Below, in pieces: positions 2,871-63,500 of a DNA stretch of 64,000 nt. The position numbers were made by a program, and so were the translations under genes. Numbering within the stretch: position 1 is the stretch's first letter; every line of letters begins with the position of its first letter. Under the pieces are notes generated by a model, which worked only from the letters and a program-made list of their open reading frames with translations, did no database searches and was not told where the DNA came from. Source of the stretch: Candidatus Calidihabitans tengchongensis (GTDB taxonomy: Bacteria; Sysuimicrobiota; Sysuimicrobiia; Sysuimicrobiales; Kaftiobacteriaceae); contig JAVKIE010000001.1 of assembly GCA_031459615.1 (NCBI GenBank), positions 66,300 through 130,299 on the forward strand. Direction: 5' to 3'.

Positions 2871-4451
2871 ATGGTCCGGGACGGCGCAGGGCCCCTTCCC
2901 GAGCACCCCGCGGAGGTGGACATCCCCCGCCGGTCCGGGGAGGCGGTGTGCGTTCCCCCGGCCGCGCGGCTGGTGGCCCTGGCGCGCGAGGTGGGCGCGG
3001 ATCTGGACCGCGCCGACGTGGTCCTGGGCGGGCTCCCCCTTCGGCGGCTGCGGGCGCAGGCGCGGGAGGAGATCCTGGCGGCGGCCGCCGCCTACACCCG
3101 CGGGCTGGGCCTGGACGCGGACATCCCGCCCGGCCGGGCGCCCCTGGTCGTCACCGGTCACCAGCCCTTCCTGTTCCACCCCGGCGTGTGGGTCAAATAC
3201 CTCCTGGCCGCCCGGCTGCAGGACCGCGGGGCCCTGGCGTTGGGCATCCCGGTGGACAGCGATGAAGCCGGCGAGGTCGGGGCCGACGCGCCGGCGTCCG
3301 GGCCGGCCGGCATGGTCCTGGCGCGGGAGGTGCTGGTGGCCGCGGAGCCGGAGGTGCCCTACGAGGCGCTGCCGGCCCCCTCGCCGGACCAGTGGGCGGC
3401 GTTCCTCGACCGCCTCCAGGCGCACCTGGAGGCGGTGCCCCTGGAGAGGGCGCAGGCCGCCTTGCGCCGATTCCGCGAGCTGACCGTGGATCTGCGCGCG
3501 GGCGACCTGGGCGCGTTCTTCACCGCGGCCCGCCACCGCTACGAAGGCCTGCGCTACCTGGAGGTCCCGGTCTCCATCCTCAGCCGCACCGACGCCTTCC
3601 GGCGGTACGCGCTTCACCTGCTGGGCGACGCGGACCGGTTTGCCGCGGTGTACAACCGCCTGCTGCAGGCCTACCGCGAGCGCCACGGCGTCCGCACGCG
3701 AGCCCAGCCGTTTCCGGACCTGGAGCGCGACGATCGGGGGGTGGAAGCGCCGTTCTGGCTGCTGCGCGCGGGCCGCCGCCTGCGGGTGTTCGTGCGGCGG
3801 CGGCGGGACCGCCTGGTCCTGGCGGCGGACGCGGACGTGGCCGAGCTGTCCCCCGGGGCGGGCCCGCAGGCCCTGGAGGGACTGGAGCTGCGTCCCCGGG
3901 CGCTGACCCTGACCCTGTTCACGCGGCTGGTGGTGGCCGATCTGTTCCTCCACGGGGTGGGCGGAGGGCGGTACGACCGGGTGACGGACGCCGTGATCGC
4001 CGACTACCTGGGCCTGGCACCTCCCGCCTACGCGGTGGCCACCGCCACCCTGCACCTGCCCCTGGCGGCCGACGACCTGCGCGCCCGGCGCCGGGAACTG
4101 CGCCAGCGCCTGATGCGCCTGCAGCACAACCCCGACCGGGTCCTGGACGATCCGACGCCCGAGCAGCGGGCGTTGATCGAGGAGAAGTGGTCGCTGGTGG
4201 CGTCGCTGTCCTCGGCGGCGCTCACCCGGCGTCAGCGACGCCAGATCACCCACCGGATCCGGGAGATCAATGCCGAGCTGTCCCGCGCTTTGGGCGAGCA
4301 GGTGGAGCGCCTGAGCCGCCAGCTGCGGGACCTGGACCGGCCCGCCACCGAGGCCGCGCTGGCGGCGGCGACCCACCGGGGCTATCCGTACTGCTACTTC
4401 CCGGTGGACGACGTCGCCGCCCTGGTGGACGGCCTGCTGTCCCGGCCGTAG
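2871..4451 (+). CDS. BshC-like (DUF2317) putative cysteine-adding ligase with C-terminal coiled coil
   Basis: 526 aa. The N-terminal region PLVVTGHQPFLFHPGVWVKYL resembles the conserved G-Q-Q/H-Q motif region of the BshC family as remembered. The C-terminal 120 aa (LRARRRELRQRLMRL...EQVERLSRQLRDL) is predicted coiled coil, like the BshC dimerisation domain. Assignment is from memory of the family, not a search. Confidence 0.35.
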   Translation: MVRDGAGPLPEHPAEVDIPRRSGEAVCVPPAARLVALAREVGADLDRADVVLGGLPLRRLRAQAREEILAAAAAYTRGLGLDADIPPGRAPLVVTGHQPFLFHPGVWVKYLLAARLQDRGALALGIPVDSDEAGEVGADAPASGPAGMVLAREVLVAAEPEVPYEALPAPSPDQWAAFLDRLQAHLEAVPLERAQAALRRFRELTVDLRAGDLGAFFTAARHRYEGLRYLEVPVSILSRTDAFRRYALHLLGDADRFAAVYNRLLQAYRERHGVRTRAQPFPDLERDDRGVEAPFWLLRAGRRLRVFVRRRRDRLVLAADADVAELSPGAGPQALEGLELRPRALTLTLFTRLVVADLFLHGVGGGRYDRVTDAVIADYLGLAPPAYAVATATLHLPLAADDLRARRRELRQRLMRLQHNPDRVLDDPTPEQRALIEEKWSLVASLSSAALTRRQRRQITHRIREINAELSRALGEQVERLSRQLRDLDRPATEAALAAATHRGYPYCYFPVDDVAALVDGLLSRP

Positions 4452-4656: not shown

Positions 4657-5109
4657 TCAGCGTGTGGGCTCCTGCGCGTTCCCGGATCTGCGCCGCATCG
4701 ACCGGCGGACGTACGCCGCTGCCAGCGCCGTCCCCGCCAGCAGGGCCGCTGCAGGCGTCAGCCACACCACCCACAGGAGGCCCCGCCGCGGAGGCTCCAG
4801 CAGGATCCACGGGCCGTAGCGGTCCACGAAGTAGGCCACGATCTGCTCCTCACTCTCTCCCCGGGCCAGCCTGTCCCGGATCAGGGCCCGCATCTGGGCG
4901 GCCAGCTCGGACGGCGAGTCGGCCACGCTCTCGTTCTGGCACACCGGGCACCGCAGCCGCGCCGCGATCGCCTGCGCCCGCGCGTCCAGATCCTGGGCTC
5001 GCGCCATCCCGGAGACGACGCTGCCCAGGAGGGCGGCGATCGCGAGCGTCGTCTTCGCCCGAGCCGCCAGACCCCCGCTCCCGCGGCCTGCGATGGTCAT
5101 GCCTGACAC
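4657..5109 (-). CDS. ccmH: cytochrome c-type biogenesis protein CcmH
   Basis: Signal-peptide-like N-terminus followed by the LRCPVCQNESV (LRCxxC) CcmH motif. Last gene of the ccm cluster. Confidence 0.7.
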   Translation of the reverse strand: MSGMTIAGRGSGGLAARAKTTLAIAALLGSVVSGMARAQDLDARAQAIAARLRCPVCQNESVADSPSELAAQMRALIRDRLARGESEEQIVAYFVDRYGPWILLEPPRRGLLWVVWLTPAAALLAGTALAAAYVRRSMRRRSGNAQEPTR

Positions 5110-5137
5110 CTTCCTCCACCACCCCCCGCCCGCACCA

Positions 5138-5683
5138 TCACCGATCGCCGGGCCGGCCGGTGCCCGGGGGGCGGTGGTCGGAGGCGGGGATCAGCGGCTC
5201 GATGCGCGGGGCCAGCAGGTCCTCGGTCACCGCCCCCGCGTGCTTGAAGACGATCCGTCCCTGCCGGTCGATCACGTAGGTTTCGGGCACGCCGACCACG
5301 CCGAAGTCGATGGCGATGGCCCCCGAGCGGTCCATCCCCACGGGAAACGTCTGCCCGAAGCGGCGCAGGAAGGCCCGGGCTGCGGCCTCGGTGTCCTGGA
5401 TGTTGATGCCCACGACCACCACGCCCCGGTCCCGATAGCGCTCCCACACGCGCTGCAGGTGCGGGGCTTCGTCGTAGCAGGCGGGGTAGCACCAGGATGC
5501 CCAGAAGTTGACCACCACCACCCGCCCGCGCAGGTTCTGGGAGCGCAGCAGGCCTCCGTCGAACAGCGGCAGGGTGAATGCCGGGGCCGGACGCCCGACC
5601 AGGGGGGACGGCAGCCGCCGGGGATCGCGGCGCAGCCCCGCCCCCAGCACCGCCAGCAGGCCCACCACGACGGCCAGCGCCAC
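5138..5683 (-). CDS. ccmG: thiol:disulfide oxidoreductase CcmG/DsbE-like (thioredoxin fold), atypical CxxxC motif
   Basis: The C-terminal 181 aa of the long ORF 5138..7681 have a TM anchor then a thioredoxin fold (VVVVNFWASWCYPACYDEAPHL...GVPETYVIDRQGRI). Start at GTG 5681-5683 is a guess and could be further upstream. The redox motif reads C-Y-P-A-C (CxxxC), not the canonical CxxC. Confidence 0.65.
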   Translation of the reverse strand: MALAVVVGLLAVLGAGLRRDPRRLPSPLVGRPAPAFTLPLFDGGLLRSQNLRGRVVVVNFWASWCYPACYDEAPHLQRVWERYRDRGVVVVGINIQDTEAAARAFLRRFGQTFPVGMDRSGAIAIDFGVVGVPETYVIDRQGRIVFKHAGAVTEDLLAPRIEPLIPASDHRPPGTGRPGDR

Positions 5684-5748
5684 CCACGGCCACCGGATCC
5701 GCCGGGTCGGGGGCGACCCCGCCGGCCGGAGGTGTTCGTCGGGGCGCC

Positions 5749-7698
5749 CTACGGGCGGCGCGGCGGCCACAGGGCCAGTCCTCCCCCGACGATCATGATG
5801 GCCCCGCCGGCCCAGATCCACGACACCAGCGGGCTGATCACCACCCGCAGGACCACCGTCTGCGCGCCCGGGTCGAATCCCAGCAGTACCACGTACAGGT
5901 CCTCCCGCCAGGTGGACCGCACCCCGGGCGTCGGGACGGGGGTCCGGGCGTGGCGGTAGAAGTTCTGGGACGGCCGCAGGACCGCCGCCGGCGCCTGATC
6001 GCGGGAGGCGGCCAGGGCCGTGCCGCCGTCGGCCACCGACACCGGGGCCCACACCACCAGGCGGTCCGGATACGTTCCCGCCCGCAGCTCGTCCACCCGC
6101 AGGGCGTACGGCCCCACGCGGATCACCTCGCCCACCCGCAGCGCGCGGTGCACCTCCAGGCGAGCAGCCTGGGAGCCTACAATGCCCGCCACCACCACCG
6201 CCATCCCCAGATGGACCACGTATCCGGCGTAGCGGTGCCGGTGGCGGAGGACCAGCTCGGCCATCGCCGCCGGAACCGGCCGTCCGCCCCGGTGCAGGGC
6301 CCGCACGCCGCGGGCCAGCTCGTCCAGCTGGGCCAGGGCCACGAACGCCACCGCCCCCACCGCCACGACGGCGACGGGCGCCCGCAACCCGGCGGCCGCC
6401 GCGGCGGAAGCGGCGACGGCGGCGAGGCCGCCGGTTCGCGCCAGGCGGCGCAGGTCTGCGGGGGACGACCGTCCCCAGCGCAGGACGGTGCCGGCGCCCA
6501 TCAGGGCCAGCAGCACCAGCCCCAGGGGGGTGATCGCGCGATTGAAAAACGGCGGCCCCACGGTGACCTTCTGCCCGGTGGCCACGTCCACCGCCAGCGG
6601 GAACACCGTGCCCACAAACACCGTCGCGGCCATCGCCAGCAGGAGCGCGTTGTTGAAGACCATCAGGGCGTCGCGGGATGCCACCGACGCCACGCTCCCG
6701 GCGTCCCGCACGTCCGGCACCCGCCAGGCCAGCGCGGCGAGCGTCCCCACGGTGACGGCCGCCAGGCCGGCGAGCAGCGCGGGCCCGATCGCCGACTGGG
6801 TGAAGGCGTGCACCGAGGCCAGCACGCCGCTGCGGGTGACGAACGTGCCGAACAGCGTCAGCCAGAACGTCGCCGCAGCCAGGACCACCGTCCAGGCCCG
6901 CAGCACTCCCCGCCGGACCTGGGCCATCGCCGAGTGCACCAGCGCGGTGGCCGTGAGCCACGGCAGCAGGGCGGCGTTCTCCACCGGATCCCACGCCCAG
7001 TAGCCTCCCCATCCCAGGACGTCGTAGGACCACCGGGCCCCCAGGACCAGCCCGGCGGTCAGCGCCGTCCACGCGCCCAGCGTCCAGGGCCGGCTGACGA
7101 CCACCCAGTCTTCGGCATCCCGGCCCGCCAGCAGGGAGCCGAGGGCAAACGCATAGGGTACCGCCATCCCCACAAACCCCAGGTAGAGCAGGGGAGGGTG
7201 CAGGATCATCAGCGGGTGGTTCTGCAGCAGGGGGTTCAGTCCGGTGCCGTCGGCCGGTGGCGTCGGCACCCGCGCAAAGGGATCGGCCGGCCCCACCAGC
7301 AGGAGCAGGAAGAACGCGCACAGGCCCAGCAGCACGCCCACCGTCCCGCGCCACAGGCGGGGCGCTGGCGCGCGGGTGCGGACGGCCACTCCTGCGGTGA
7401 GGGCGGCCAGCAGCCAGGTCCACAGCAGCAGGGACCCTTCCAGCGCCCCCCACAGCGCCGCCACCCGGAACGCCAGCGGGGTGGTGCGGTTGGTGGTGGC
7501 GGCCACGTAGCGGATGCTGAAGTCCCCGCCGATCAGGGCCCACTCCAGGAGCGCCACCGCACCGGTGACCGCCACCGCCATGCCCGCCGCCAGCGGGACG
7601 ACCCGCCGCCCGCCCCGCGGCCGGGCGCACGCCGCCAGGCCGGCCACCGCACAGGCCGCCGCGGCCACCAGGCTGATCCATCCTCCCAGCGCGATCAC
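5749..7698 (-). CDS. ccmF: cytochrome c heme lyase subunit CcmF
   Basis: 649-aa polytopic membrane protein with the WGGYWAWDPVEN WWD-domain signature of CcmF/NrfE. Its ATG overlaps the ccmE stop (ATGA). Confidence 0.85.
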   Translation of the reverse strand: MIALGGWISLVAAAACAVAGLAACARPRGGRRVVPLAAGMAVAVTGAVALLEWALIGGDFSIRYVAATTNRTTPLAFRVAALWGALEGSLLLWTWLLAALTAGVAVRTRAPAPRLWRGTVGVLLGLCAFFLLLLVGPADPFARVPTPPADGTGLNPLLQNHPLMILHPPLLYLGFVGMAVPYAFALGSLLAGRDAEDWVVVSRPWTLGAWTALTAGLVLGARWSYDVLGWGGYWAWDPVENAALLPWLTATALVHSAMAQVRRGVLRAWTVVLAAATFWLTLFGTFVTRSGVLASVHAFTQSAIGPALLAGLAAVTVGTLAALAWRVPDVRDAGSVASVASRDALMVFNNALLLAMAATVFVGTVFPLAVDVATGQKVTVGPPFFNRAITPLGLVLLALMGAGTVLRWGRSSPADLRRLARTGGLAAVAASAAAAAGLRAPVAVVAVGAVAFVALAQLDELARGVRALHRGGRPVPAAMAELVLRHRHRYAGYVVHLGMAVVVAGIVGSQAARLEVHRALRVGEVIRVGPYALRVDELRAGTYPDRLVVWAPVSVADGGTALAASRDQAPAAVLRPSQNFYRHARTPVPTPGVRSTWREDLYVVLLGFDPGAQTVVLRVVISPLVSWIWAGGAIMIVGGGLALWPPRRP

Positions 7699-8084
7699 GG
7701 AGACGGGGGAGCGTACTGCTCCGAGTGCTTGACGATCACCGAGCGGGCCACGAAGACGCCGTCGGACCCGTAGATGCCCTCCACGACCGCCCCCTGGCCT
7801 TCGGTGAACAGGTCGGGGGGCACGCCCCGGTACAGGACCGGGACCGCGGCGCGGCCGTCGGTCAGCACGAAGCGCAGCTCCAGGGTTCGGGGATCAAACG
7901 ATCGCGACCCCGGCTGCACCTGGCCGCCCAGCCGCAGGGGCCGGCCCACCGCGTCCGGGCCCCGGTCCAGCAGCTCGCCGGGGGTGATGTAGTAGACCAC
8001 CGCCCCGCGGAGCCCTCCGATGACGAGGTAGACCAGGGCGCCGACCACCACCGCCGCCGCCAGCATCAGGCGCGCGCGCCTCAC
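7695..8084 (-). CDS. ccmE: heme chaperone CcmE
   Basis: TM anchor plus OB-fold region (VVYYITPGEL...RFVLTDG...VPVLYRGVPPDLF...GSDGVFVARSVIVKHSEQY). Chosen start is GTG 8082-8084 with GGAGGAG 5 nt upstream. The ORF track extends to an upstream ATG at 8192. Confidence 0.8.
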   Translation of the reverse strand: MRRARLMLAAAVVVGALVYLVIGGLRGAVVYYITPGELLDRGPDAVGRPLRLGGQVQPGSRSFDPRTLELRFVLTDGRAAVPVLYRGVPPDLFTEGQGAVVEGIYGSDGVFVARSVIVKHSEQYAPPSP

Positions 8085-8206
8085 CGCGTCTCCTCCCCCC
8101 TGCCGGGGCGGGTGCGGCGCAGCCGCCGGCGCAGGTGGACCACGTAGAGCACCACCGCCGCCGCCACCACGCCGTAGGCCAGGGCGATCCACACCGCCGG
8201 CGTCAT
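8081..8206 (-). CDS. ccmD: heme exporter protein CcmD (small membrane protein)
   Basis: 41 aa: MTPAVWIALAYGVVAAAVVLYVVHLRRRLRRTRPG, single TM plus a basic tail typical of CcmD. Its ATG overlaps the ccmC stop (ATGA) and its stop overlaps the ccmE GTG (GTGA). Confidence 0.5.
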   Translation of the reverse strand: MTPAVWIALAYGVVAAAVVLYVVHLRRRLRRTRPGRGEETR

Positions 8207-8856
8207 CCGGCCTCCTCGGACTCTTCCCGGCGCGCCACCCGCACGCGCAGGAGCAGCAGGTAGGCGAACAGGACGGTGAAGGCCAGCAGGCTCAGCAGCA
8301 GCGTCAGGAGCATCGGCGGCGCCAGGGCGACCTCTCCACGGGTGATGGACGGAGGCTGGTGCAGGGTCCGGAACCAGACCACCGAGTAGTGGATGAGGGG
8401 GACGTCTGCCGCCCCGAGGACGCCCACCACCGCGCCCAGCCGGGCTCCCCGCTGCGGATCGTCGGCCAGCGCCCGCACGAGCAGGGCGCTGCAGTAGATC
8501 AGGAACAGGACGGCCGTGGTGACCAGGCGCGCATCCCACGTCCACCACACCCCCCACACGGGGCGCCCCCAGATCGAGCCGGTGGCCAGCGTGAGGCCCG
8601 TGAACAGGACCGCCAGCTCGGTGGCGCTGCGGGTCAGGGCGTCATAGCGCGCCTCACGCCTCCACAGGTACAGGACCCCGCCGACCAGGGTGACGCCCAC
8701 CGCCAGGTACGCCACCCAGGCCGCGGGCACATGGACGTACATGATGCGGACGTAGTCGCCCTGAAAGGCGTCCGGCGGCGACGCCACCAGGCCCGCATAG
8801 GCCGCGGCGCCCAGCAGCAACACGGCCGCACCGCCCAGGACGGCAGACACCGTCAT
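8203..8856 (-). CDS. ccmC: heme exporter protein CcmC
   Basis: 217 aa with the WGRPVWGVWWTWDARL WWD motif and conserved His. ATGA overlap with the ccmB stop. Confidence 0.85.
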   Translation of the reverse strand: MTVSAVLGGAAVLLLGAAAYAGLVASPPDAFQGDYVRIMYVHVPAAWVAYLAVGVTLVGGVLYLWRREARYDALTRSATELAVLFTGLTLATGSIWGRPVWGVWWTWDARLVTTAVLFLIYCSALLVRALADDPQRGARLGAVVGVLGAADVPLIHYSVVWFRTLHQPPSITRGEVALAPPMLLTLLLSLLAFTVLFAYLLLLRVRVARREESEEAG

Positions 8857-9512
8857 ACCTCGTCCATCACCGCCTCAAACAGGATCGGACAGGCCAGCAC
8901 GAACACCGCGACGCTGCCGGCCAGCACCCCCGGCCACACGCCTGCCGGCGCGCCCGCCAGGACGGCCTCGGTGAGCCGGATGCAGGCCAGCACGGGCGGC
9001 AGGGCCAGGGGCAGCATCAGCAGGGGCGCCAGCAGCTCCCGCCCCCGCACGTGCAGCAGCAGTCCGGCCACCAGCGTTCCCAGGGCCGCCAGGGCGGCCA
9101 CGCCGGCCCCGCCCACCGCCGCCAGCTGCGGCAGGCGCGCGGCCACGGGGAGTCCGAACAGGAATGCAGCCAGGATCAGCAGGACGGCCACCACACCCCC
9201 CAGGAGGACCGCGAGCGCGGCGGCTTTGCCCCAGTACAGGTGCTCGCGCCGGCCCGGGTACAGCAGCAGCGCCTCCAGCGCCTGCTGGTCAGCCTCGGCC
9301 TGGGTGATCCGCGGGATGCCCACCGCCGCCGCGCACGCTGCCGACACCCACACCACGGCGGCGGCGCGGGCGGGTTCGGGCCCCAGCGCCACGCCCAGGA
9401 CCAGCACCAGCAGCAGGCCCGCCAGGAGCATGGTGAGGGCGACGGCTCGTCCTCGCCACTCCGCGCGCAGGTCCTTGCGGGCCACCGCCGCCGCCCGCGT
9501 CCACCCGCTCAC
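8853..9512 (-). CDS. ccmB: heme exporter ABC permease CcmB
   Basis: 219-aa six-TM protein (ARKDLRAEWR...). GTG start at 9510-9512 overlaps the ccmA stop (GTGA). The ORF track has a spurious 5' extension to 10004. Confidence 0.8.
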   Translation of the reverse strand: MSGWTRAAAVARKDLRAEWRGRAVALTMLLAGLLLVLVLGVALGPEPARAAAVVWVSAACAAAVGIPRITQAEADQQALEALLLYPGRREHLYWGKAAALAVLLGGVVAVLLILAAFLFGLPVAARLPQLAAVGGAGVAALAALGTLVAGLLLHVRGRELLAPLLMLPLALPPVLACIRLTEAVLAGAPAGVWPGVLAGSVAVFVLACPILFEAVMDEV

Positions 9513-10201
9513 GGGCGGCCTCCCTGCGCGGCGAACGCCGGCGCACCGGGGGCCAGGGATCGGAGCGCGGCGGGCTCCCCGGCCTGCAGCACCAGTTCCG
9601 CATCCGCCAGCGCCCGGGCGCGGTCGCGGTCGTGGGTGGCGATCACGGCACTGCCTCCCCGGGCGACGACCTCCGCCACCATGGCGGCGACCAGCGCGGC
9701 CCCCTCGGGATCCAGCCCGGCGTAGGGCTCGTCCAGCAGCAGCAGCCGCGGCTGGCCCAACCAGACCCGCGCCAGCGCCAGCCGGCGCTTCATGCCCTGG
9801 CTGAAGGTCCGGACGAGCCGGTCGGCGGCGGCACCCAGACCCACCCGGCGCAGCCAGGCGTCCACGTCCGTCTGCGGGCGCCCCCACAGGGCGGCTGCGA
9901 ACTCCAGATTCTCGCGGGCCGTGAGCAGCTCGTAACCGCCGAAGGCGGCGCCCACCAGCCCCACCATCGGGCGCACCCGGTCCGCCTGCCTGACCAGGTC
10001 GCATCCGAAGACGGTGCCCCCGCCCGCCGTGGGTCGCAGGGCGGTGGCCAGCAGGCGCAGCAGCGTCGTCTTGCCCGACCCGTTGGGACCGGAGACCAGC
10101 AGCACCCGGCCGGCAGGCACGGTCAGGGTGATGCGGCGCACGGCCCAGACCGGGCCGAACCGCCGTCCCAGGTTCACCGCGCGCACGGCCGGGACGTCCA
10201 C
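9509..10201 (-). CDS. ccmA: heme exporter ABC ATPase CcmA
   Basis: Walker A GPNGSGKTTLLR, signature FSQGMKRRLALA and Walker B LLLLDEP. Start is GTG 10199-10201. The ORF track extends spuriously to 11008 on the opposite strand of the cyt c gene. Confidence 0.8.
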   Translation of the reverse strand: MDVPAVRAVNLGRRFGPVWAVRRITLTVPAGRVLLVSGPNGSGKTTLLRLLATALRPTAGGGTVFGCDLVRQADRVRPMVGLVGAAFGGYELLTARENLEFAAALWGRPQTDVDAWLRRVGLGAAADRLVRTFSQGMKRRLALARVWLGQPRLLLLDEPYAGLDPEGAALVAAMVAEVVARGGSAVIATHDRDRARALADAELVLQAGEPAALRSLAPGAPAFAAQGGRP

Positions 10202-10366: not shown

Positions 10367-11269
10367 ATGGGGGGTCGGATCGTCGCCGTCGCCATCGTCG
10401 TGGCCGGCGCTCTTTTTTTGGCCGGCTGCCAGCCCGCGGTGGACATCTCCCGGGCGGGCGTGGAGGCGGCGCGGGAGCTGCCCCCGGCGCCGCCGGATCG
10501 ACCCCTGCTGCCCGTGGACGCCCGGGGCCAGCCCATCCGTCCCTCGGCCGAGGTGGGCGCCCAGGTGTTCAGCCGGGCGCGGTGCGACGTCTGCCACGGC
10601 CCTCAGGGACGCGGCGACGGGCCCGCGGCGGCGGGTCTGCGGGCGGAGCAGAAGACGCTGCTGCACGACCTGGCCCGCCTGGTGGGGATCCGCCTGCAGC
10701 CCGAGCGGCTGCCCAGCCGCCCGGCCAACTTCCACAACGTGGTGGCGATGCGCCTGAACAGCCCGTTCAGCATGTACGAGACCGTCACCCGGGGGCGCCC
10801 GCACACGGCGATGCCGGCGTTCGGCCCGCGCCCGGCCTACGGCGCCACGTCCTTCGGCGTCCGGCTGACCGACGCGGAGCGCTGGCACGTGATCTTCTTC
10901 GAGTGGGCGTTCGCCACCACGCCCGAGGAGGTGGCGCGGGGACGCGAGCTGTACGAGACGCGGGCCATCGAGGTGGGCGGGCGCGCCCTGACCTGCGCGT
11001 CCTGCCACGGGGTGCGGGGGGACGGCCGGGGGCCGGAGGGCGTGCGGCTGAGCCAGCGGCTGTGGACGTGGGCCCGGGGACAGGGCCCGGGGATCTTCAC
11101 CGACTTCAACCTGATGGCCCAGCGCAAGCCCAGCGACCTGTTCCAGGCGGTCGTGGACGGACGGGGAGAGATGCCCGCCTACCGGGGGAAGCTCACCGAG
11201 GACGAGATCTGGGCCCTCGTGAACTACATCTATACGTTCGTCTACGACTATCCGGGGCTGCGCCGGTAG
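10367..11269 (+). CDS. diheme c-type cytochrome, lipoprotein
   Basis: Lipobox signal MGGRIVAVAIVVAGALFLAGC. Two CxxCH heme-binding sites (CDVCH, CASCH). ATG at 10367 sits in-frame inside the larger ORF 9632..11269. Confidence 0.75.
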   Translation: MGGRIVAVAIVVAGALFLAGCQPAVDISRAGVEAARELPPAPPDRPLLPVDARGQPIRPSAEVGAQVFSRARCDVCHGPQGRGDGPAAAGLRAEQKTLLHDLARLVGIRLQPERLPSRPANFHNVVAMRLNSPFSMYETVTRGRPHTAMPAFGPRPAYGATSFGVRLTDAERWHVIFFEWAFATTPEEVARGRELYETRAIEVGGRALTCASCHGVRGDGRGPEGVRLSQRLWTWARGQGPGIFTDFNLMAQRKPSDLFQAVVDGRGEMPAYRGKLTEDEIWALVNYIYTFVYDYPGLRR

Positions 11270-11368: not shown

Positions 11369-12061
11369 ATGGAGAACCCGCCGACGCGGATGATGGAGCG
11401 GCGCCGGTTCCTGCGCCTGGCGACCACCGTTCCGGCGCTGGCCGCCCTGGCCGGGCTGGTGTCGCCGCTGCTGCGGCTGCTCAAGCCCAACGTGGACAAG
11501 TTCCGCATCTACGCCCCCACGGCGCACGACACCCCCCAGGGCGAGGCCATCGTGGCGGCCACCCTGTCGGAGGTCGCCCGCCCCTGGGACTTCAAGTACT
11601 TCGTGTTCACCCAGAAGTATCCCCAGTACACGCCCCAGGGATTCAAAGCCGCCGTCGTGCCGGGGGTGGTGGTCCGCCTGCCGCGGAAGATCCGTCTGTA
11701 CGATCCGGCCACCGGCCGCGGCCCTCTGGCGTGGGCCCGGGACATCGGCAAGACCCCCCGGGTCACCGACAGCGACCTGGTGGTGTTTTCCCGGATCTGC
11801 CCGCACCTGGGCTGCATCTTCAACTACGTCCCCGACTACCGGGAGATCACCGCCGGCTACGGCGGCTACGTGCCGCCCCCCGAGCGCCGGCACGCCCTGA
11901 TGGGGTGTCCCTGCCACCTGAGCATCTACGACCCGGCCGACCCGCAGGTCCCGGGGAGGGTCCTCTCGGGTCCGGCGCCGCGCCCCCCGCGCACGTTTCT
12001 GTTTGAGGTGCGGGGCGGGGACATCGTCATCACCGACGTGGAGCCGGGGGGAATCGCCTGA
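11369..12061 (+). CDS. Rieske [2Fe-2S] iron-sulfur protein of a cytochrome bc-type complex (Tat signal)
   Basis: Twin-arginine motif ERRRFLRLA. Rieske boxes CPHLGC and CPCHLS, with disulfide cysteines. Confidence 0.85.
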   Translation: MENPPTRMMERRRFLRLATTVPALAALAGLVSPLLRLLKPNVDKFRIYAPTAHDTPQGEAIVAATLSEVARPWDFKYFVFTQKYPQYTPQGFKAAVVPGVVVRLPRKIRLYDPATGRGPLAWARDIGKTPRVTDSDLVVFSRICPHLGCIFNYVPDYREITAGYGGYVPPPERRHALMGCPCHLSIYDPADPQVPGRVLSGPAPRPPRTFLFEVRGGDIVITDVEPGGIA

Positions 12062-12070
12062 GGTCTGACC

Positions 12071-13231
12071 ATGTGGGAGACGGTGCGCGACTGGCTGCGA
12101 GAGCGCCGGGAGAAACTGGACCTGTTCGACGAGACCCTGGTGGCCCGGCAGGGCAATCCCTTCTACCTCCTGGGGCCCATGCTGTACTACTTCTGGCTCA
12201 TCACCGTCGTCACCGGGGTCGTCCTGATGCTGTGGTACGAGCCCACCACCACGGGCGCCTACAGCTCCATCGAGCGCATTCAGAACGAGATCGGCCGCAC
12301 CGGCCTGACCGTGTTCGGGCGCCCGGTGGTCCTGGGCGGGCTGATCCGCGGCCTGCACAAGTACGGCGCCGACGCCCTCATCACCGTCATCTTCCTGCGC
12401 CTGTACCGCATGTACTTCCTGGGAGAGTACAAGAAGCCGGGCGAGCTGTCGTGGATGCTGGCCTTTGCCGGATTGATCCTGGCCATGATCTCCGGGATCA
12501 CCGGCTACCTGCTCATCTGGAACCAGCGGGCCTTCTGGGCCGCCAAGGTAGTCCTGACGGTCCCGGTGTACTTCGACGAGATCCCGGTCCTGGGCCAGTT
12601 GAAGTTCGGCTCGATGATCGCCTACCTGTTCCTGGGCGGGCCGGCCATCGGCCAGGCCACCATCACCCGGTTTTACGCCATCCACTTCGGCATCTCCCTG
12701 GTCCTGCTGGTCCTGGTGGAGGTGCTGTTCTTCCGCACCCGCCGCAAGCGCATCAACATGTCGCTGACGCCCCTGGCGGTGTTCCTGGTCATGCTGGTGG
12801 TCATCTCCCTCCTCCTGCCAGCCGAAAGCGGCCGGCGGGCCGATCCCACGCGGACGCCCCTGCCCATCCTGTCGGACTGGTACTTCCTGGCCCTGTACCA
12901 GTACGTGAAGTATACGCCGCCGTTGTGGGCGGGGCTGGGCCCCGGGCTGCTCATCGGCTTCGGCATGCTGGTGCCCTTTCTGGACCGCAGCCGGGGCCGC
13001 CGGCCCCTGGAGCGGCCGTTCTTCTTCGTGGTGGGCGTGCTGGCGCTCACCTACTTCCTGGTGTTCACGGCGCTGATCCTGTTCAACATCGCGGTGATCG
13101 AGCGGGATCCGTTCATCATCATGCTGGTGACGCTGGCGGTTCTGAGCCTGGGCCTGGCGTGGGAGATCCGGTACCGCCGCCGCCGGGCGGCGGCCCCCGC
13201 TGCGCCAGCCCGGGCGCCCGCCCGCGGGTAG
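12071..13231 (+). CDS. cytochrome b-like membrane subunit (fused b6 + subunit IV length) retaining only the heme bL histidine pair
   Basis: N-terminus and Qo-region align with cytochrome b (GYLLIWNQRAFWAAKVV..., TRFYAIHFG, SDWY in place of PEWY). In the helix B motif LHKYGADALITVIFLR the second His is Arg. In the helix D motif IHFGISLVLLVLVEVL the second His is absent. Only 2 His occur in the first 300 aa. Confidence 0.8.
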   Translation: MWETVRDWLRERREKLDLFDETLVARQGNPFYLLGPMLYYFWLITVVTGVVLMLWYEPTTTGAYSSIERIQNEIGRTGLTVFGRPVVLGGLIRGLHKYGADALITVIFLRLYRMYFLGEYKKPGELSWMLAFAGLILAMISGITGYLLIWNQRAFWAAKVVLTVPVYFDEIPVLGQLKFGSMIAYLFLGGPAIGQATITRFYAIHFGISLVLLVLVEVLFFRTRRKRINMSLTPLAVFLVMLVVISLLLPAESGRRADPTRTPLPILSDWYFLALYQYVKYTPPLWAGLGPGLLIGFGMLVPFLDRSRGRRPLERPFFFVVGVLALTYFLVFTALILFNIAVIERDPFIIMLVTLAVLSLGLAWEIRYRRRRAAAPAAPARAPARG

Positions 13232-13235
13232 GCCG

Positions 13236-13481
13236 ATGCGGCTGCTGTCCATCGCGGTGGCGTTCGTGGCGGCCCTGGCGGCCCTGTCGGCGGGGTGGGC
13301 GGCGGTGCAGGCGGCGTGGGCCGCCCCCACCCCGGGCGCCCTGGCCCGGGTGGCGGGGTACGCGCTGGTCTTCGCGGCGGCGTTTCTGTACCTGGGGTTC
13401 TGGGTGTACGCGGCGGACCGCGCGGCGGGCAGGGTCCGCCGGCGCATCGGCCTGTATGAGCGCTTCCTGGCCGGCCGGTAG
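13236..13481 (+). CDS. small hydrophobic membrane protein (81 aa)
   Basis: ORF starts 5 nt after the cyt b-like stop. Two predicted TM helices. No recognisable motif. Confidence 0.35.
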   Translation: MRLLSIAVAFVAALAALSAGWAAVQAAWAAPTPGALARVAGYALVFAAAFLYLGFWVYAADRAAGRVRRRIGLYERFLAGR

Positions 13482-13540: not shown

Positions 13541-13741
13541 ATGCGGAACGCGCATCTGACCGGCATCATCGCCCTCAGCGCCGTGGCCGTGGCGGCCGCG
13601 GCCGGCATCGTCTACGGGGAAGCCACCGACCGGTGGTACCTGGGCGGCGCCCTGGTGGGCGTGCTGCTGATCGCGTACGCGGGCATCGTGCTGCTGCTGC
13701 GTCGGATGGGCCTGATCGGGCCCCGGAGGGCTGAGCGGTGA
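13541..13741 (+). CDS. small membrane protein (66 aa)
   Basis: Two TM helices. Its stop overlaps the GTG of the downstream cyt b-ferredoxin gene (GTGA), suggesting co-translation within the same module. Confidence 0.35.
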   Translation: MRNAHLTGIIALSAVAVAAAAGIVYGEATDRWYLGGALVGVLLIAYAGIVLLLRRMGLIGPRRAER

Positions 13742-14931
13742 GCGTCGCGGACGTGCGGCCCAGCCGCTACGGGCGGGTGATGACCGCGCTGTTGCGGGCC
13801 ACCCTGCGGGTGGACACGTGGATCCACCGGATCGTGCCCACCGACTACAACCCGCTGTACTACACCGGCGGCCTGGCCAACCTCTTCCTGCTGGTCCTGG
13901 TCCTCTCGGGTATCTTCCTGTTCTTCTACTACGAGGCCAGCCTGGAGGGCGCGTTCGCCTCGGTGCGCTACCTGACCCAGGCGGTCCCCTACGGGGGGCT
14001 GCTGCGGGGGGTGCACCGCTACGCCGCCGACGCCTTCGTGGTGGCCATCCTGCTGCACCTGTTCCGCAACTGGTTCACCGACCGCTACCTGTTCTCCCGG
14101 GATAACCCGTGGATCTCGGGGATGATCCTGCTGCTGTTCGGGGGCTTCATCGGGGTCACCGGCTACCAGCTGGTGTGGGATGAGCGGGCCCAGGTCCTGA
14201 CCGCGCTGTTCGCGCGCCTGCTGCGCAGCATCCCCGGGGTGGGCGGCGCGCTGGCCGAGCTGTTCTTGGGGGGGCGCGGGGTCAGCGATGCCACCCTGGT
14301 GCGGATGCTGTTCCTGCACATCGGGCCCGCCTCGGCCCTGTACCTGCTGCTGTGGTGGCACTACCTGCGGCTGCGCCACCCCAAGATCTGGCCGCCGGCG
14401 ATGTGGGTGCTGTTCTGCGTGGGGCTGGTCTTCCTGCTGGCGGGCCTGATTCCCGTGGGCGCCGAGGCCATCCCGCCGGCGGCGCCGGCCGCGCGGCCCA
14501 CCCGGTTCGCCCTGGATGTCTTCTTCCTGTGGCCGTTCTGGCTGCTGAACTGGCTGCCGCCCCGCGGGGTCGTGGCCCTGGGGGTGGTCCTGTTCACCGC
14601 CGGCCTGGCCATCCCGTACCTCAGCCGGCGAGAGCACCCCGCGGCCATGGGGGTGCGCCACGCCGGCGTGGCCCAGGTGATCGACGGCAACTGCACCGGA
14701 TGCGAGCTGTGCTACTACGACTGTCCCTACAACGCCATCGTCATGGTGCCGTCTCCCGCCCCGGGGCTGACCAAGGCGGCGGCGAACCGCACCCTGCTGG
14801 CGGTGGTGGTGGAGTCCCGGTGCGTGGAATGCGGGATCTGCATCGGCGCGTGCCCCTTTGAGGCGCTGGAGCTGCCCCGGCTCCTGGAGCGGGACGTGCT
14901 GGCGCAGGTGGCGGAGGCGGTGTCGGCATGA
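13738..14931 (+). CDS. cytochrome b (both bis-His heme sites intact) fused to a C-terminal 2x[4Fe-4S] ferredoxin domain
   Basis: Helix B motif VHRYAADAFVVAILLH and helix D motif LHIGPASALYLLLWWH both keep the H-x13-H spacing. C-terminal CTGCELCYYDCP and CVECGICIGACP are two classic 4Fe-4S ferredoxin motifs. Confidence 0.75.
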   Translation: MSVADVRPSRYGRVMTALLRATLRVDTWIHRIVPTDYNPLYYTGGLANLFLLVLVLSGIFLFFYYEASLEGAFASVRYLTQAVPYGGLLRGVHRYAADAFVVAILLHLFRNWFTDRYLFSRDNPWISGMILLLFGGFIGVTGYQLVWDERAQVLTALFARLLRSIPGVGGALAELFLGGRGVSDATLVRMLFLHIGPASALYLLLWWHYLRLRHPKIWPPAMWVLFCVGLVFLLAGLIPVGAEAIPPAAPAARPTRFALDVFFLWPFWLLNWLPPRGVVALGVVLFTAGLAIPYLSRREHPAAMGVRHAGVAQVIDGNCTGCELCYYDCPYNAIVMVPSPAPGLTKAAANRTLLAVVVESRCVECGICIGACPFEALELPRLLERDVLAQVAEAVSA

Positions 14932-15377
14932 GCGAGCCCCGGATCGTGGGGTTTGTGTGCGACTGGAGCGTGGACCTCCGGCCCCTGGTGGACGGCGGCC
15001 GGCTGCGGGATCTGCCCGGGGTGCGGATCATCCGCGTCCCCTGCTCGGGTTTCGTGCGCCCCGCGTGGCTGGAGGAGGCCCTCGTCCGGGGCGCCGCCGG
15101 CGCCTTCGTCACCGGGTGTCCGTACGGGGACTGCCTGAACCGCGAGGGCAACTTCCTGATGCGGGATCGGATCGACCAGCTGCAGCGCCGGCTGCAGCGC
15201 CGCAAGATCGACCCCGCCCGGGTGGCCATGCTGGCCCACGGGCTGCACGACGGGCGGGCGTTCCTGGAGGCGGTGCGCGCCTTCGCGGACCGGGTGGCCG
15301 CGCTGCCGGCTCCGGCCCGGCCGGGCCGCCCGGCGGTGGCGCAACCGGCCGGCGCGCCGGAGGGGGAGGGGACGTGA
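14928..15377 (+). CDS. MvhD/FlpD-like protein (methyl-viologen-reducing hydrogenase delta subunit family, [2Fe-2S])
   Basis: IVGFVCDWSVD...RIIRVPCSGFV...GAFVTGCPYGDCLNREGN matches the FlpD/MvhD cysteine pattern (C-x-W-C/S...PCSG...GC..G.C). ATGA overlap with the upstream cyt b-Fd fusion. Confidence 0.6.
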   Translation: MSEPRIVGFVCDWSVDLRPLVDGGRLRDLPGVRIIRVPCSGFVRPAWLEEALVRGAAGAFVTGCPYGDCLNREGNFLMRDRIDQLQRRLQRRKIDPARVAMLAHGLHDGRAFLEAVRAFADRVAALPAPARPGRPAVAQPAGAPEGEGT

Positions 15378-15481
15378 GCCGGGCGCCGCTGCGGGTGCAC
15401 CTGCTGTACCTGTTGTTCTACCTGTTCTGGTTCCTGCTGCTGACGTTCATCGCGTCCTTCGGGCTGGTGGCCGAGGCGTAG
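15374..15481 (+). CDS. 35-aa single-TM peptide, translationally coupled to the MvhD-like gene
   Basis: GTG overlaps the MvhD-like TGA (GTGA). Sequence VSRAPLRVHLLYLLFYLFWFLLLTFIASFGLVAEA is reminiscent of the small PetG/L/N-type subunits of Rieske/cyt b complexes. Confidence 0.3.
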   Translation: MSRAPLRVHLLYLLFYLFWFLLLTFIASFGLVAEA

Positions 15482-15598: not shown

Positions 15599-15976
15599 AT
15601 GGGCAGGAGGATGGGGCGGTGGGCGGTGCTGGCCGGCGTGGCGGTGATCGTCGCGGGCTGCGGGGGCGGTGGTCCCCGGGGCGGGCAGCCGGCGGCGCCG
15701 GCGGAGGGAGCCATCACCGTCACCGAGACCGAGTGGGCCATCCGGTTTCCCGGCACCCCCCTCAAGGCCGGGAAGGCCACCCTGGTCATCAGGAACGAGG
15801 GCACCATCGAGCACAACTTCGTCATCCAGGGGCTGGGCGTGGAAGTGGACGCCATCCCCCCCGGCGGGTCCCGGCAGGTGACCGTGGACCTGCGGCCGGG
15901 GACGTATGAGGTGGTCTGCAACCTCCCCGGCCACCTGGAGGCCGGCATGAAGACGACCATCACCGTCGCTCCCTGA
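15599..15976 (+). CDS. type-1 copper (cupredoxin/plastocyanin-like) lipoprotein
   Basis: Lipobox VIVAGCGG. Copper ligand pattern H(NF)...C(NLPG)H...M. AAGGAGGG RBS 5 nt before ATG 15599. The ORF track starts at 15524. Confidence 0.75.
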   Translation: MGRRMGRWAVLAGVAVIVAGCGGGGPRGGQPAAPAEGAITVTETEWAIRFPGTPLKAGKATLVIRNEGTIEHNFVIQGLGVEVDAIPPGGSRQVTVDLRPGTYEVVCNLPGHLEAGMKTTITVAP

Positions 15977-33951: not shown

Positions 33952-34026
33952 GGGCCTGTAGCTCAGCGGGAGAGCGCCCGCTTGGCGTGCGGGAGGTCGC
34001 GGGTTCAATTCCCGCCAGGTCCACCA
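33952..34026 (+). tRNA. tRNA-Ala (anticodon GGC), CCA-encoded
   Basis: Hand-folded cloverleaf. Acceptor stem GGGCCTG/CAGGTCC with the G3:U70 alanine identity pair. Anticodon loop TTGGCGT. T-loop GGGTTCAATTCCC. 3' ACCA. Confidence 0.85.
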
Positions 34027-63401: not shown

Positions 63402-63500
63402 CCTCGCGATAAAGGCAAACCCAGGGTGACCTGGGGGCGCAAAGCTACGGGACCTGCCGGTGGCGATGGCCGGAAGGTCAGCCGGGCTGCCGAACGAGGC
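63402..63500 (+). promoter_or_regulatory. candidate c-di-GMP-I (GEMM) riboswitch aptamer
   Basis: AAAGGCAAACC, then the CCCAGG-GTGA-CCTGGG hairpin (GNRA tetraloop), then GGCGCAAAGCTACGGG. These reproduce the two hallmark GEMM blocks (GGCAAACC ... GACGCAAAGCYACGGG) with a P2 GNRA hairpin between them. A P1-like pairing CCTCG/CGAGG closes the element. Downstream CCCTCCT could sequester the GGAGGAGG RBS. Confidence 0.5.

Follow-up and report, generated by a model that had tools for sequence, protein, structure and literature searches.

The genome of Candidatus Calidihabitans tengchongensis (Sysuimicrobiota) contains, on contig JAVKIE010000001.1 (assembly GCA_031459615.1, positions 66,300 to 130,299), an operon with two different cytochrome b genes. 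All coordinates of this locus refer to this stretch of 64,000 nucleotides, hereafter the window, and all genes of the operon lie on its plus strand. The first cytochrome b gene, denoted cyt b1 (12071..13231), is directly preceded by the gene of a Rieske [2Fe-2S] protein (11369..12061) with a twin-arginine signal (RRRFLRL) and the boxes CPHLGC and CPCHLSIY; the neighborhood that defines a Rieske/cytochrome b complex is thus present. The second, cyt b2 (13738..14931), starts about 500 bp downstream of cyt b1 and encodes a cytochrome b of helices A-F fused to a ferredoxin domain (PF00033 and Fer4 families). It is followed by a gene for an MvhD/FlpD-like iron-sulfur protein of 149 amino acids (aa) with four Cys residues (14928..15377; PF02662, 91.9 bits), which also matches two NCBIfam models, that of the HdrA2 C-terminal region and VhuD.

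Cyt b1 is a genuine cytochrome b homolog that retains the His pair of heme bL alone. The 386-aa protein has eight predicted helices and exceeds the cutoffs of both Pfam families expected for a full-length cytochrome b, Cytochrome_B (PF00033; 95.9 bits, cutoff 27.2) and Cytochrom_B_C (PF00032; 28.8 bits, cutoff 20.7), as an earlier note on this DNA had proposed, and the motifs quoted there are all present. The closest solved structures are those of cytochrome b6 (E 9e-32), and subunit IV chains of the b6f complex match residues 239-333. The PF00032-type C-terminal domain includes the ef-loop motif of the quinol oxidation (Qo) site. Scores against the NCBIfam models ExtP, SoxC, and QcrB were all far under their cutoffs, which rules out membership in these families.

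Canonical cytochromes b are recognized by four His residues, with one pair in each of helices B and D and a spacing of 13-14 residues within a pair. Cyt b1 departs from this scheme, since only two His exist in the entire protein, H96 and H205; the earlier note had stated this for the first 300 residues. A HMMER alignment to b6 (1vf5_A) puts both at the positions of the bp (bL) ligands. Arg110 (codon CGC, 12398..12400, checked directly) stands opposite b6 His100, a ligand of bn (bH), in agreement with the Arg noted before at the H+14 position of helix B. In helix D, the site expected for the second bH His is covered by the codons of E217-V218-L219-F220 (12719..12730). The HMMER alignment places b6 His202 opposite Phe220, and the bc1-type spacing of 14 residues leads to Leu219 instead; a direct codon check confirmed CTG/TTC at 12725-12730 for this pair, and the His reported as missing from helix D is indeed absent. 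Both aligned bH positions of the window protein are thus occupied by non-ligand residues, and no other His is available to replace them. Heme-packing glycines are retained at G35, G49, and G145, and the N-side Gly of helix C is replaced by Ala131. At the position of the heme-cn Cys35 of b6, cyt b1 carries Leu33 (FYLLGP vs FYCLGG). It is highly likely that cyt b1 contains no heme bH. Lacking both bH ligands, the subunit alone would be unable to run the conventional path from Qo via bL and bH to the quinone reduction (Qi) site.

The Qo motif of cyt b1 reads SDWY (residues 268-271, DNA 12872-12883, by direct codon check). The earlier remark that this motif alters the proton-exit motif of the Qo site needs correction insofar as the carboxylate is not lost: the Asp is invariant, as in PDWY, and only the change from Pro to Ser remains as a signature of the clade described below. 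PDWY is the predominant Qo motif of menaquinol-using Gram-positive bacteria (Kao and Hunte, 2014, PMC4122944). Some bH-less homologs of cyt b1 with PDWY and very large insertions in the helix A-B loop were also observed (P0140, P0143, and L052 5027-6505); the insertions comprise up to about 250 Lys/Glu-rich residues on the outer membrane side.

The substitutions are shared by a large number of relatives. Among 120 homologs with at least 78% identity to cyt b1, drawn from many independent assemblies, Arg is found at H+14 wherever the helix-B regular expression matched (about 114 sequences, with no match in the other 6), no bH His was found in helix D by regular expression, and SDWY occurs in nearly all scored members. 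A protein identical to cyt b1 is encoded on 14 contigs from several assemblies, two of which belong to NCBI metagenome-assembled genomes (MAGs) that bear the label Armatimonadota (GCA_031458495.1 and GCA_031081675.1). When 1.8 billion cluster representatives were searched exhaustively, a clade with a sharp boundary emerged, comprising about 25 representatives (clusters at 50% identity) that are 32-57% identical. Their bH position in helix B is occupied by R in 24 cases and by K in one, compared with H in 112 of 112 canonical representatives of the same set. A genome scan with one genome per species added 52 loci (L004-L055), all with the bH-less pattern, and 28 canonical loci. The bH-less loci span at least seven phyla and were found in Sysuimicrobiota, Melainabacteria (Vampirovibrionales, Obscuribacterales), Deinococcales, Holophagaceae, Solibacteraceae, Anaerolineae, a Gammaproteobacteria MAG, Caldisericia, and Planctomycetota; named relatives are Candidatus Sysuimicrobium and Fervidifonticultor, in line with the placement of the window in the phylum Sysuimicrobiota (CSP1-3). 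Substitutions common to the 120 close homologs, the approximately 25 representatives, and the 52 loci are not a sequencing or assembly error, the outcome that the earlier note had named as its refutation. The ratio of nonsynonymous to synonymous substitution rates (dN/dS) of cyt b1 against close orthologs is 0.12-0.18, hence the gene is under purifying selection. To judge from this distribution, the loss of the bH ligands is real and ancient.

Within the clade, constraint differs from position to position. In 17 diverse members, H96, R110, H205, D269, W270, and Y271 are invariant, and E217, which is clade-specific, is nearly so. Invariance of the two bL ligands and of the DWY residues argues for a functional Qo site and heme bL. 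Position 219 varies with the lineage: Sysuimicrobiota have L/F there, Melainabacteria and Deinococcales Y, Holophagaceae R, and a few lineages H. It is thus not under ligand constraint; this spread is the pattern expected of a site released from it. The N-side Gly of helix C, present in 111 of 112 canonical sequences, is mostly replaced by Ala/Ser/Thr in the bH-less clade. It could be speculated that a buried salt bridge between Arg110 and Glu217 takes the place of the His-Fe-His arrangement. Glu217 was aligned with the canonical bH His by MAFFT; an ungapped alignment, together with clade members that have a His at +14, locates the ligand site at 219, two residues from Glu217 and on a different helix face.

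The Rieske partners of the bH-less proteins also stand out. The window Rieske reaches a Pfam Rieske score of 17.6, under the cutoff of 20.3, with its CxHxGC and CxCH motifs intact, and 36 residues lie between the start of box I and the start of box II. A CPCH[LF]S[IV]Y box combined with a spacer of 31-39 residues is found in nearly all bH-less loci with a Rieske match, the exception being the Caldisericia locus L049 (CNCHNGAF, spacer 21). Canonical neighboring complexes possess a CPCHxG Rieske with an 18-residue spacer. In motif and spacing, the clade has a Rieske type of its own. Mutagenesis of the bc1 Rieske protein has demonstrated that Ser and Tyr after CPCH raise the potential of the cluster. 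By analogy, the clade Rieske would be of the high-potential type and would push bL to a very low potential. Taken together, the selected Qo/bL module of cyt b1 is intact: a Rieske protein accompanies it, both bL ligands and an acidic Qo motif are present, and the C-terminal domain is complete.

The second cytochrome b of the operon shows complementary features. No heme ligand is missing from cyt b2 (H93, H107, H194, H208), which carries a degenerate sequence at the Qo position (LDVF) and a C-terminal domain for two [4Fe-4S] clusters (Cys 319/322/325/329 and 362/365/368/372). All orthologs of cyt b2 retain the four His and eight Fe-S Cys residues, read x-D-[WVIA]-[FY] at the Qo position, and end after helix F. 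With six helices, the Fer4 domain would be located on the N (cytoplasmic) side, alongside the FlpD-like protein, which lacks a signal sequence. Hence the defects of both proteins are complementary: cyt b1 lacks bH, and in cyt b2 the Qo motif is degenerate and the C-terminal domain truncated. A b2-Fer4 gene was detected in 38 of 39 bH-less loci with enough flanking sequence, nearly always with FlpD as the next gene, and in none of 18 canonical loci; the usual order in most lineages is Rieske, b1, small membrane proteins, b2, FlpD. Beside a canonical four-His cytochrome b of a Chloroflexi MAG (L058, 8001-9005), Fer4 and FlpD-like segments were noticed about 4 kb upstream (3534-4236), which may belong to an unrelated Hdr/Mvh-type cluster. 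The pairwise distance matrices of b1 and b2 correlate with r = 0.91 (13 loci), and both genes are co-inherited. When a profile of diverse cyt b2 sequences was used as query, nearly all matches were relatives of the Sysuimicrobiota type.

A further link between the genes is provided by a single-transmembrane (TM) peptide of 35 aa, ending ...LLLTFIASFGLVAEA (...SFGLVAEA), which is encoded immediately behind FlpD (15374..15481; gene call in L003), with a start overlapping the FlpD stop. Melainabacteria, Deinococcales, and a Gammaproteobacteria MAG encode it at the same place behind FlpD. In P0124, P0125, and P0131, which represent other lineages, it forms the C-terminal part of cyt b1 by fusion, a Rosetta-stone link that physically connects b1 with the operon end. 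The peptide sequences (L004 ~7250-7355, L018 ~11720-11835, L023 ~12240-12365, L025 5436-5594, L027 11589-11783, and also L046) share the C-terminal motif ...[AG][SCW]FG[LI][IVF][AS]E[AFV], conserved across phyla; the open reading frame (ORF) is missing from two of the three gene-call sets examined. Altogether, it is likely that cyt b1 works in one complex with the b2-FeS-FlpD proteins.

The remaining genes of the operon encode small membrane proteins and electron carriers. Two proteins with two predicted TM segments each are encoded between the cytochrome b genes, one of 81 aa (13236..13481), a member of a cluster (c5) found at 10 loci in several phyla, and one of 66 aa (13541..13741), whose place is taken by ORFs of about 110 aa in other lineages. 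The stop of the 66-aa gene overlaps the cyt b2 start by 4 nt, and 4-nt overlaps are likewise found between b2 and FlpD and between FlpD and the peptide gene, which points to genes belonging to one operon. Upstream of the Rieske gene lies a gene for a diheme c-type cytochrome (10367..11269; gene call matching PF13442/PF00034) with two CxxCH motifs and a LAGC lipobox. The gene at 15611..15976 (longest possible ORF from 15524) encodes a type-1 copper cupredoxin, in which a VAGC lipobox and the motif C-x4-H-x4-M were recognized. Acceptors for the high-potential branch are thus encoded together with the complex: the diheme cytochrome c is the likely acceptor of the Rieske branch, and the cupredoxin probably the carrier that takes up its electrons. 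The lipoprotein-type signals of both carriers suggest that they are membrane-tethered. Upstream of the operon and divergent from it, a complete System I cytochrome c maturation (ccm) cluster is located on the minus strand (4657-10201, coordinates transferred from the L001 gene calls), consisting of CcmA, B, C, a 41-aa CcmD-like ORF, E, F, a thioredoxin-like CcmG, and H. Elsewhere in the window, Rfam detected one tRNA (33952-34023, plus strand) and, near the window end, a c-di-GMP-I-GGC riboswitch aptamer (63405-63495, plus strand; 64 bits, gathering score 59).

Outside the Sysuimicrobiota, the module is preceded by genes for a cbb3-type CcoN, a FixO-cytochrome c fusion, and a FixS-like peptide. 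In Melainabacteria, a fused complex III/IV operon is known, in which the orthologous subunits are annotated as PetB/PetC (PMC6349859). The Caldisericia loci (L049 3105-9131, L052 121-6508) show a permuted operon with the order Rieske, b2-Fer4, FlpD, two Fe-S proteins of about 350 aa, a FAD/NAD-binding protein, and a bH-less b1 with PDWY. Their module thus encloses two Fe-S proteins and a FAD/NAD-binding protein with a DHODB-type Fe-S domain, and the Rieske of these anaerobes is of another type (CNCHNGAF, spacer 21).

On balance, if only just, cyt b1 would appear to be the heme-bL-only half of an asymmetric Rieske/cytochrome b complex, in which it forms a heterodimer with cyt b2 and electrons are transferred across the dimer. 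According to this proposal, b1 and b2 would represent the two halves of the usual cytochrome b dimer, and quinol would be oxidized at the single Qo site of b1. The first electron would be passed via the Rieske protein and the diheme cytochrome c to the cupredoxin, or in other phyla to the cbb3 oxidase of the same operon. The second electron would move from bL of b1 across the dimer interface to bL of b2 and on to bH of b2, from where it could travel through the [4Fe-4S] clusters and the [2Fe-2S] center of MvhD to a cytoplasmic acceptor. A diheme cytochrome b wired to cytoplasmic Fe-S proteins is common in other respiratory enzymes. Transfer between the bL hemes of two monomers has been described to sustain catalysis in engineered bc1 (Czapla et al., 2013, PMC4330944). 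The earlier note had concluded that a bH-less cytochrome b breaks the return path of the Q cycle. This stands for b1 on its own, and it falls short insofar as the gene was viewed in isolation and the partners b2-Fer4 and FlpD were overlooked: with both encoded in the operon, the low-potential path is probably rerouted through the partner and not simply broken.

The fate of the low-potential electron is more speculative and would amount to a quinol-based bifurcation that yields low-potential reductant or NAD(P)H instead of recycling electrons at Qi. Sysuimicrobiota are reported to be facultative chemoautotrophs in which sulfide:quinone oxidoreductase is widespread (PMC11604079), and such a metabolism creates a need to lift quinol electrons to the level of NAD(P)H or ferredoxin. 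That a low-potential cytoplasmic reductant is the output is nevertheless a tentative and rather doubtful part of the proposal. Similarly, it is conceivable, if somewhat improbable, that the assembly is an obligate heterodimeric complex III without Qi, bifurcating electrons between an oxidase or cupredoxin and a ferredoxin-like or NAD(P)+ acceptor.

Several observations weigh against the asymmetric complex. Heterodimerization is deduced from genomic data, and the AF2 model of cyt b1, built from an alignment of 30 sequences at least 78% identical, reached a pLDDT of 47.8 and a pTM of 0.42, for which reason helix boundaries alone were taken from it. The sister grouping of the b1 and b2 clades appeared in only 7 of 60 neighbor-joining (NJ) bootstraps, with 46/60 for the b1 clade and 28/60 for the b2 clade, values that are rough because a crude distance was used; the pair would thus not stem from a simple duplication within the operon. 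In a Vampirovibrionales MAG (L021 7878-17077), the Rieske, the bH-less b1, and a homolog of the 81-aa protein are present, and no cyt b2, Fer4, or FlpD was found within 8 kb downstream. Conversely, a Planctomycetota MAG (L055 705-7739) encodes cbb3 genes, a cyt b1 with ADWY, cyt b2, and a long FlpD (272 aa), and no Rieske was detectable at this locus. Heme loss may also not be universal in the clade, since the His at H205+14 is kept in P0122, P0124-P0126, P0131, and L017, and Lys occurs in helix B elsewhere. Cyt b2 might possess a Qi site, which would allow a Q cycle to continue on one side. Once across the membrane potential, the electron may be too weakly reducing for ferredoxin, and no conserved gene for a cytoplasmic acceptor follows FlpD among the loci outside Caldisericia; FAD/NAD-binding and associated Fe-S proteins were found only in L049 and L052.

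The alternative that survives best assumes two separate enzymes encoded in one operon. Cyt b1 would form a homodimer and, together with the Rieske protein, act as a quinol:cytochrome c/cupredoxin oxidoreductase without a Q cycle, in which both electrons leave via the Rieske protein and bL serves as a transient sink only. The b2-Fer4-FlpD proteins would constitute a second membrane oxidoreductase, working on its own and connecting the quinone pool with a redox partner in the cytoplasm, as Rieske-less relatives may do. That a b2-type module can stand alone is indicated by fusions of cytochrome b, 4Fe-4S, and MvhD without a Rieske in Magnetospirillum and Turneriella (Kao and Hunte, 2014), and the b1 of L021 with no b2 nearby and the absence of a sister relationship also fit this explanation. 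It has to contend, however, with the near-obligate synteny in at least seven phyla, with the complementary losses, and with the fusion of the post-FlpD peptide to b1 in some lineages. In addition, the invariant bL ligands would be purposeless if bL were a dead end. Bypass-type oxidation at Qo is normally suppressed and generates reactive oxygen species. Two separate enzymes are thus considered unlikely.

A less probable variant retains the heterodimer of b1 and b2 and reverses the low-potential branch. Electrons from a cytoplasmic donor would reach the Qo site via FlpD, the 4Fe-4S clusters, bH and bL of b2, and finally bL of b1, yielding either a cytoplasmic-donor:cytochrome c/cupredoxin oxidoreductase or a confurcating enzyme that reduces quinone at Qo together with the high-potential chain; the confurcating version would support reverse electron flow. 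MvhD normally relays electrons between hydrogenase and HdrA, and both directions are possible. The FAD/NAD-binding protein of Caldisericia could oxidize NAD(P)H, and the membrane potential favors electron movement from the N-side to the P-side. Such a flow would, however, dissipate the membrane potential, and a cbb3 oxidase in the operon of most lineages fits ordinary forward quinol oxidation. The high-potential type of Rieske appears better suited to bifurcation, and no sequence feature discriminates the direction. With these points in mind, the reversed branch is judged to be quite improbable.

Still further down ranks the idea that the bH site of b1 holds a second heme by unconventional ligation (five-coordinate, or with Lys/Tyr/Met/Glu) and that an ordinary Q cycle persists. 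It draws on the clade members mentioned above with a His at H205+14 or a Lys in helix B, on others with a Tyr at the former position, and on bacterial bc1 mutants in a single bH ligand, which are reported to be able to keep the heme (PMC4807273). Arg is not a heme ligand, though, and the window protein offers only Arg110 and Leu219/Phe220 at the two sites and no further His. The hypervariable position 219, the replaced heme-packing Gly in helix C, and an invariant Arg with a nearly invariant Glu exactly at the expected heme site speak against it as well, making a second heme in b1 very improbable. Finally, a sequencing or assembly artefact, a decaying pseudogene, or chance is rejected by the occurrence of the identical protein on 14 contigs, the conservation of the pattern in more than 150 independent sequences, the intact ORF, and the low dN/dS, leaving this explanation a practically negligible probability.

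The locus therefore apparently represents a conserved complex III variant of several phyla that has been undescribed so far; in the open-access full-text literature, no description of the bH-less clade or of the b1/b2 pairing was found. The four His of cytochrome b are usually held to be invariant, and the bH-less clade is nonetheless widespread. A large survey treated these residues as invariable and removed sequences without them from its dataset (Kao and Hunte, 2014, PMC4122944), which may be the reason why the clade went unnoticed. In the Melainabacteria, annotation has treated it as a normal complex III of the b6f-like kind, with a cbb3 oxidase fused to it. If b1 and b2 indeed form an obligate heterodimer, it would be the main or only complex III of the Melainabacteria, the non-photosynthetic relatives of Cyanobacteria, and of the Sysuimicrobiota. 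Should the Fe-S/MvhD tail be the exit of the electron, reconstructions of respiration, reverse electron flow, and autotrophy would change for both groups, and the early history of b6f close to the root of the Cyanobacteria would be touched as well. The clean sequence signature makes this idea easily testable.

Among known systems, the b6f complex and the menaquinol:cytochrome c reductase of the Firmicutes type resemble cyt b1 most closely, with respect to the top sequence match, the adjacent Rieske, the acidic Qo motif, and the helix order. In contrast to the split genes of b6f, cyt b1 combines b6 and subunit IV in a single polypeptide with an eighth helix. It also lacks the heme-cn Cys and both bn/bH ligands, carries SDWY at Qo, and shares its operon with another cytochrome b that differs from it. 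As a natural precedent for the loss of a bH ligand, only the cytochrome b of Pyrobaculum was found, in which one His ligand of heme bH is systematically absent (Kao and Hunte, 2014, PMC4122944). There, the second bH ligand alone is missing, the protein belongs to an unrelated archaeal branch (Thermoprotei), and no paired Fe-S cytochrome b has been reported.

The domain set of cyt b2 and FlpD, comprising cytochrome b, two [4Fe-4S] clusters, and MvhD, is shared with the 'PDWF-FeS' clade, in which cytochrome b, 4Fe-4S, and MvhD are fused in Magnetospirillum magneticum and Turneriella parva (Kao and Hunte, 2014). The members of this clade are reported with an intact PDWF and no Rieske in the cluster, whereas cyt b2 carries the degenerate LDVF, nearly always occurs with a Rieske and a bH-less cytochrome b, and has its MvhD encoded by a separate gene. 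Both are known from sequence, and the function of either is deduced.

Conceptually, the proposed complex comes close to the Rieske/cytochrome b complexes of the anammox bacterium Kuenenia (kuste4569-74, kustd1480-85), which possess NAD(P) oxidoreductase subunits (PMC12954380). For these, it has been proposed, although not proven, that the low-potential electron exits via cytoplasmic Fe-S centers and not via Qi, allowing quinol bifurcation to NAD(P)H with a high-potential Rieske (PMC12954380). The concept is the same, and the Caldisericia module also includes Fe-S and FAD/NAD-binding proteins. In the models of the anammox complexes, cytochrome b forms a homodimer that carries both b hemes and heme cN, and an additional heme is proposed at the interface; multiheme c subunits and one docked NAD(P) reductase complete them. 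Neither an NAD(P) oxidoreductase subunit nor multiheme cytochromes c are present in the window, where bH has been lost from one cytochrome b and the fused Fe-S domain belongs to another, non-identical one. If the exit via Fe-S clusters and MvhD holds true, it would be a second, independent case of quinol-based bifurcation feeding a cytoplasmic reductant, beside the anammox proposal.

A functional parallel to a b1:b2 dimer would be the engineered asymmetric bc1 of Rhodobacter (fused B-B or two-tag heterodimers), in which the electron from Qo can cross between the bL hemes to bH/Qi of the other monomer (PMC4330944). If b1 and b2 dimerize as suggested, they would be the natural counterpart of this cross-wired enzyme, which was constructed to prove the bL-bL transfer between monomers. 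In Rhodobacter, the asymmetry results from laboratory knock-outs of sites in a symmetric homodimer, whereas here it would be natural, ancient, and obligatory.

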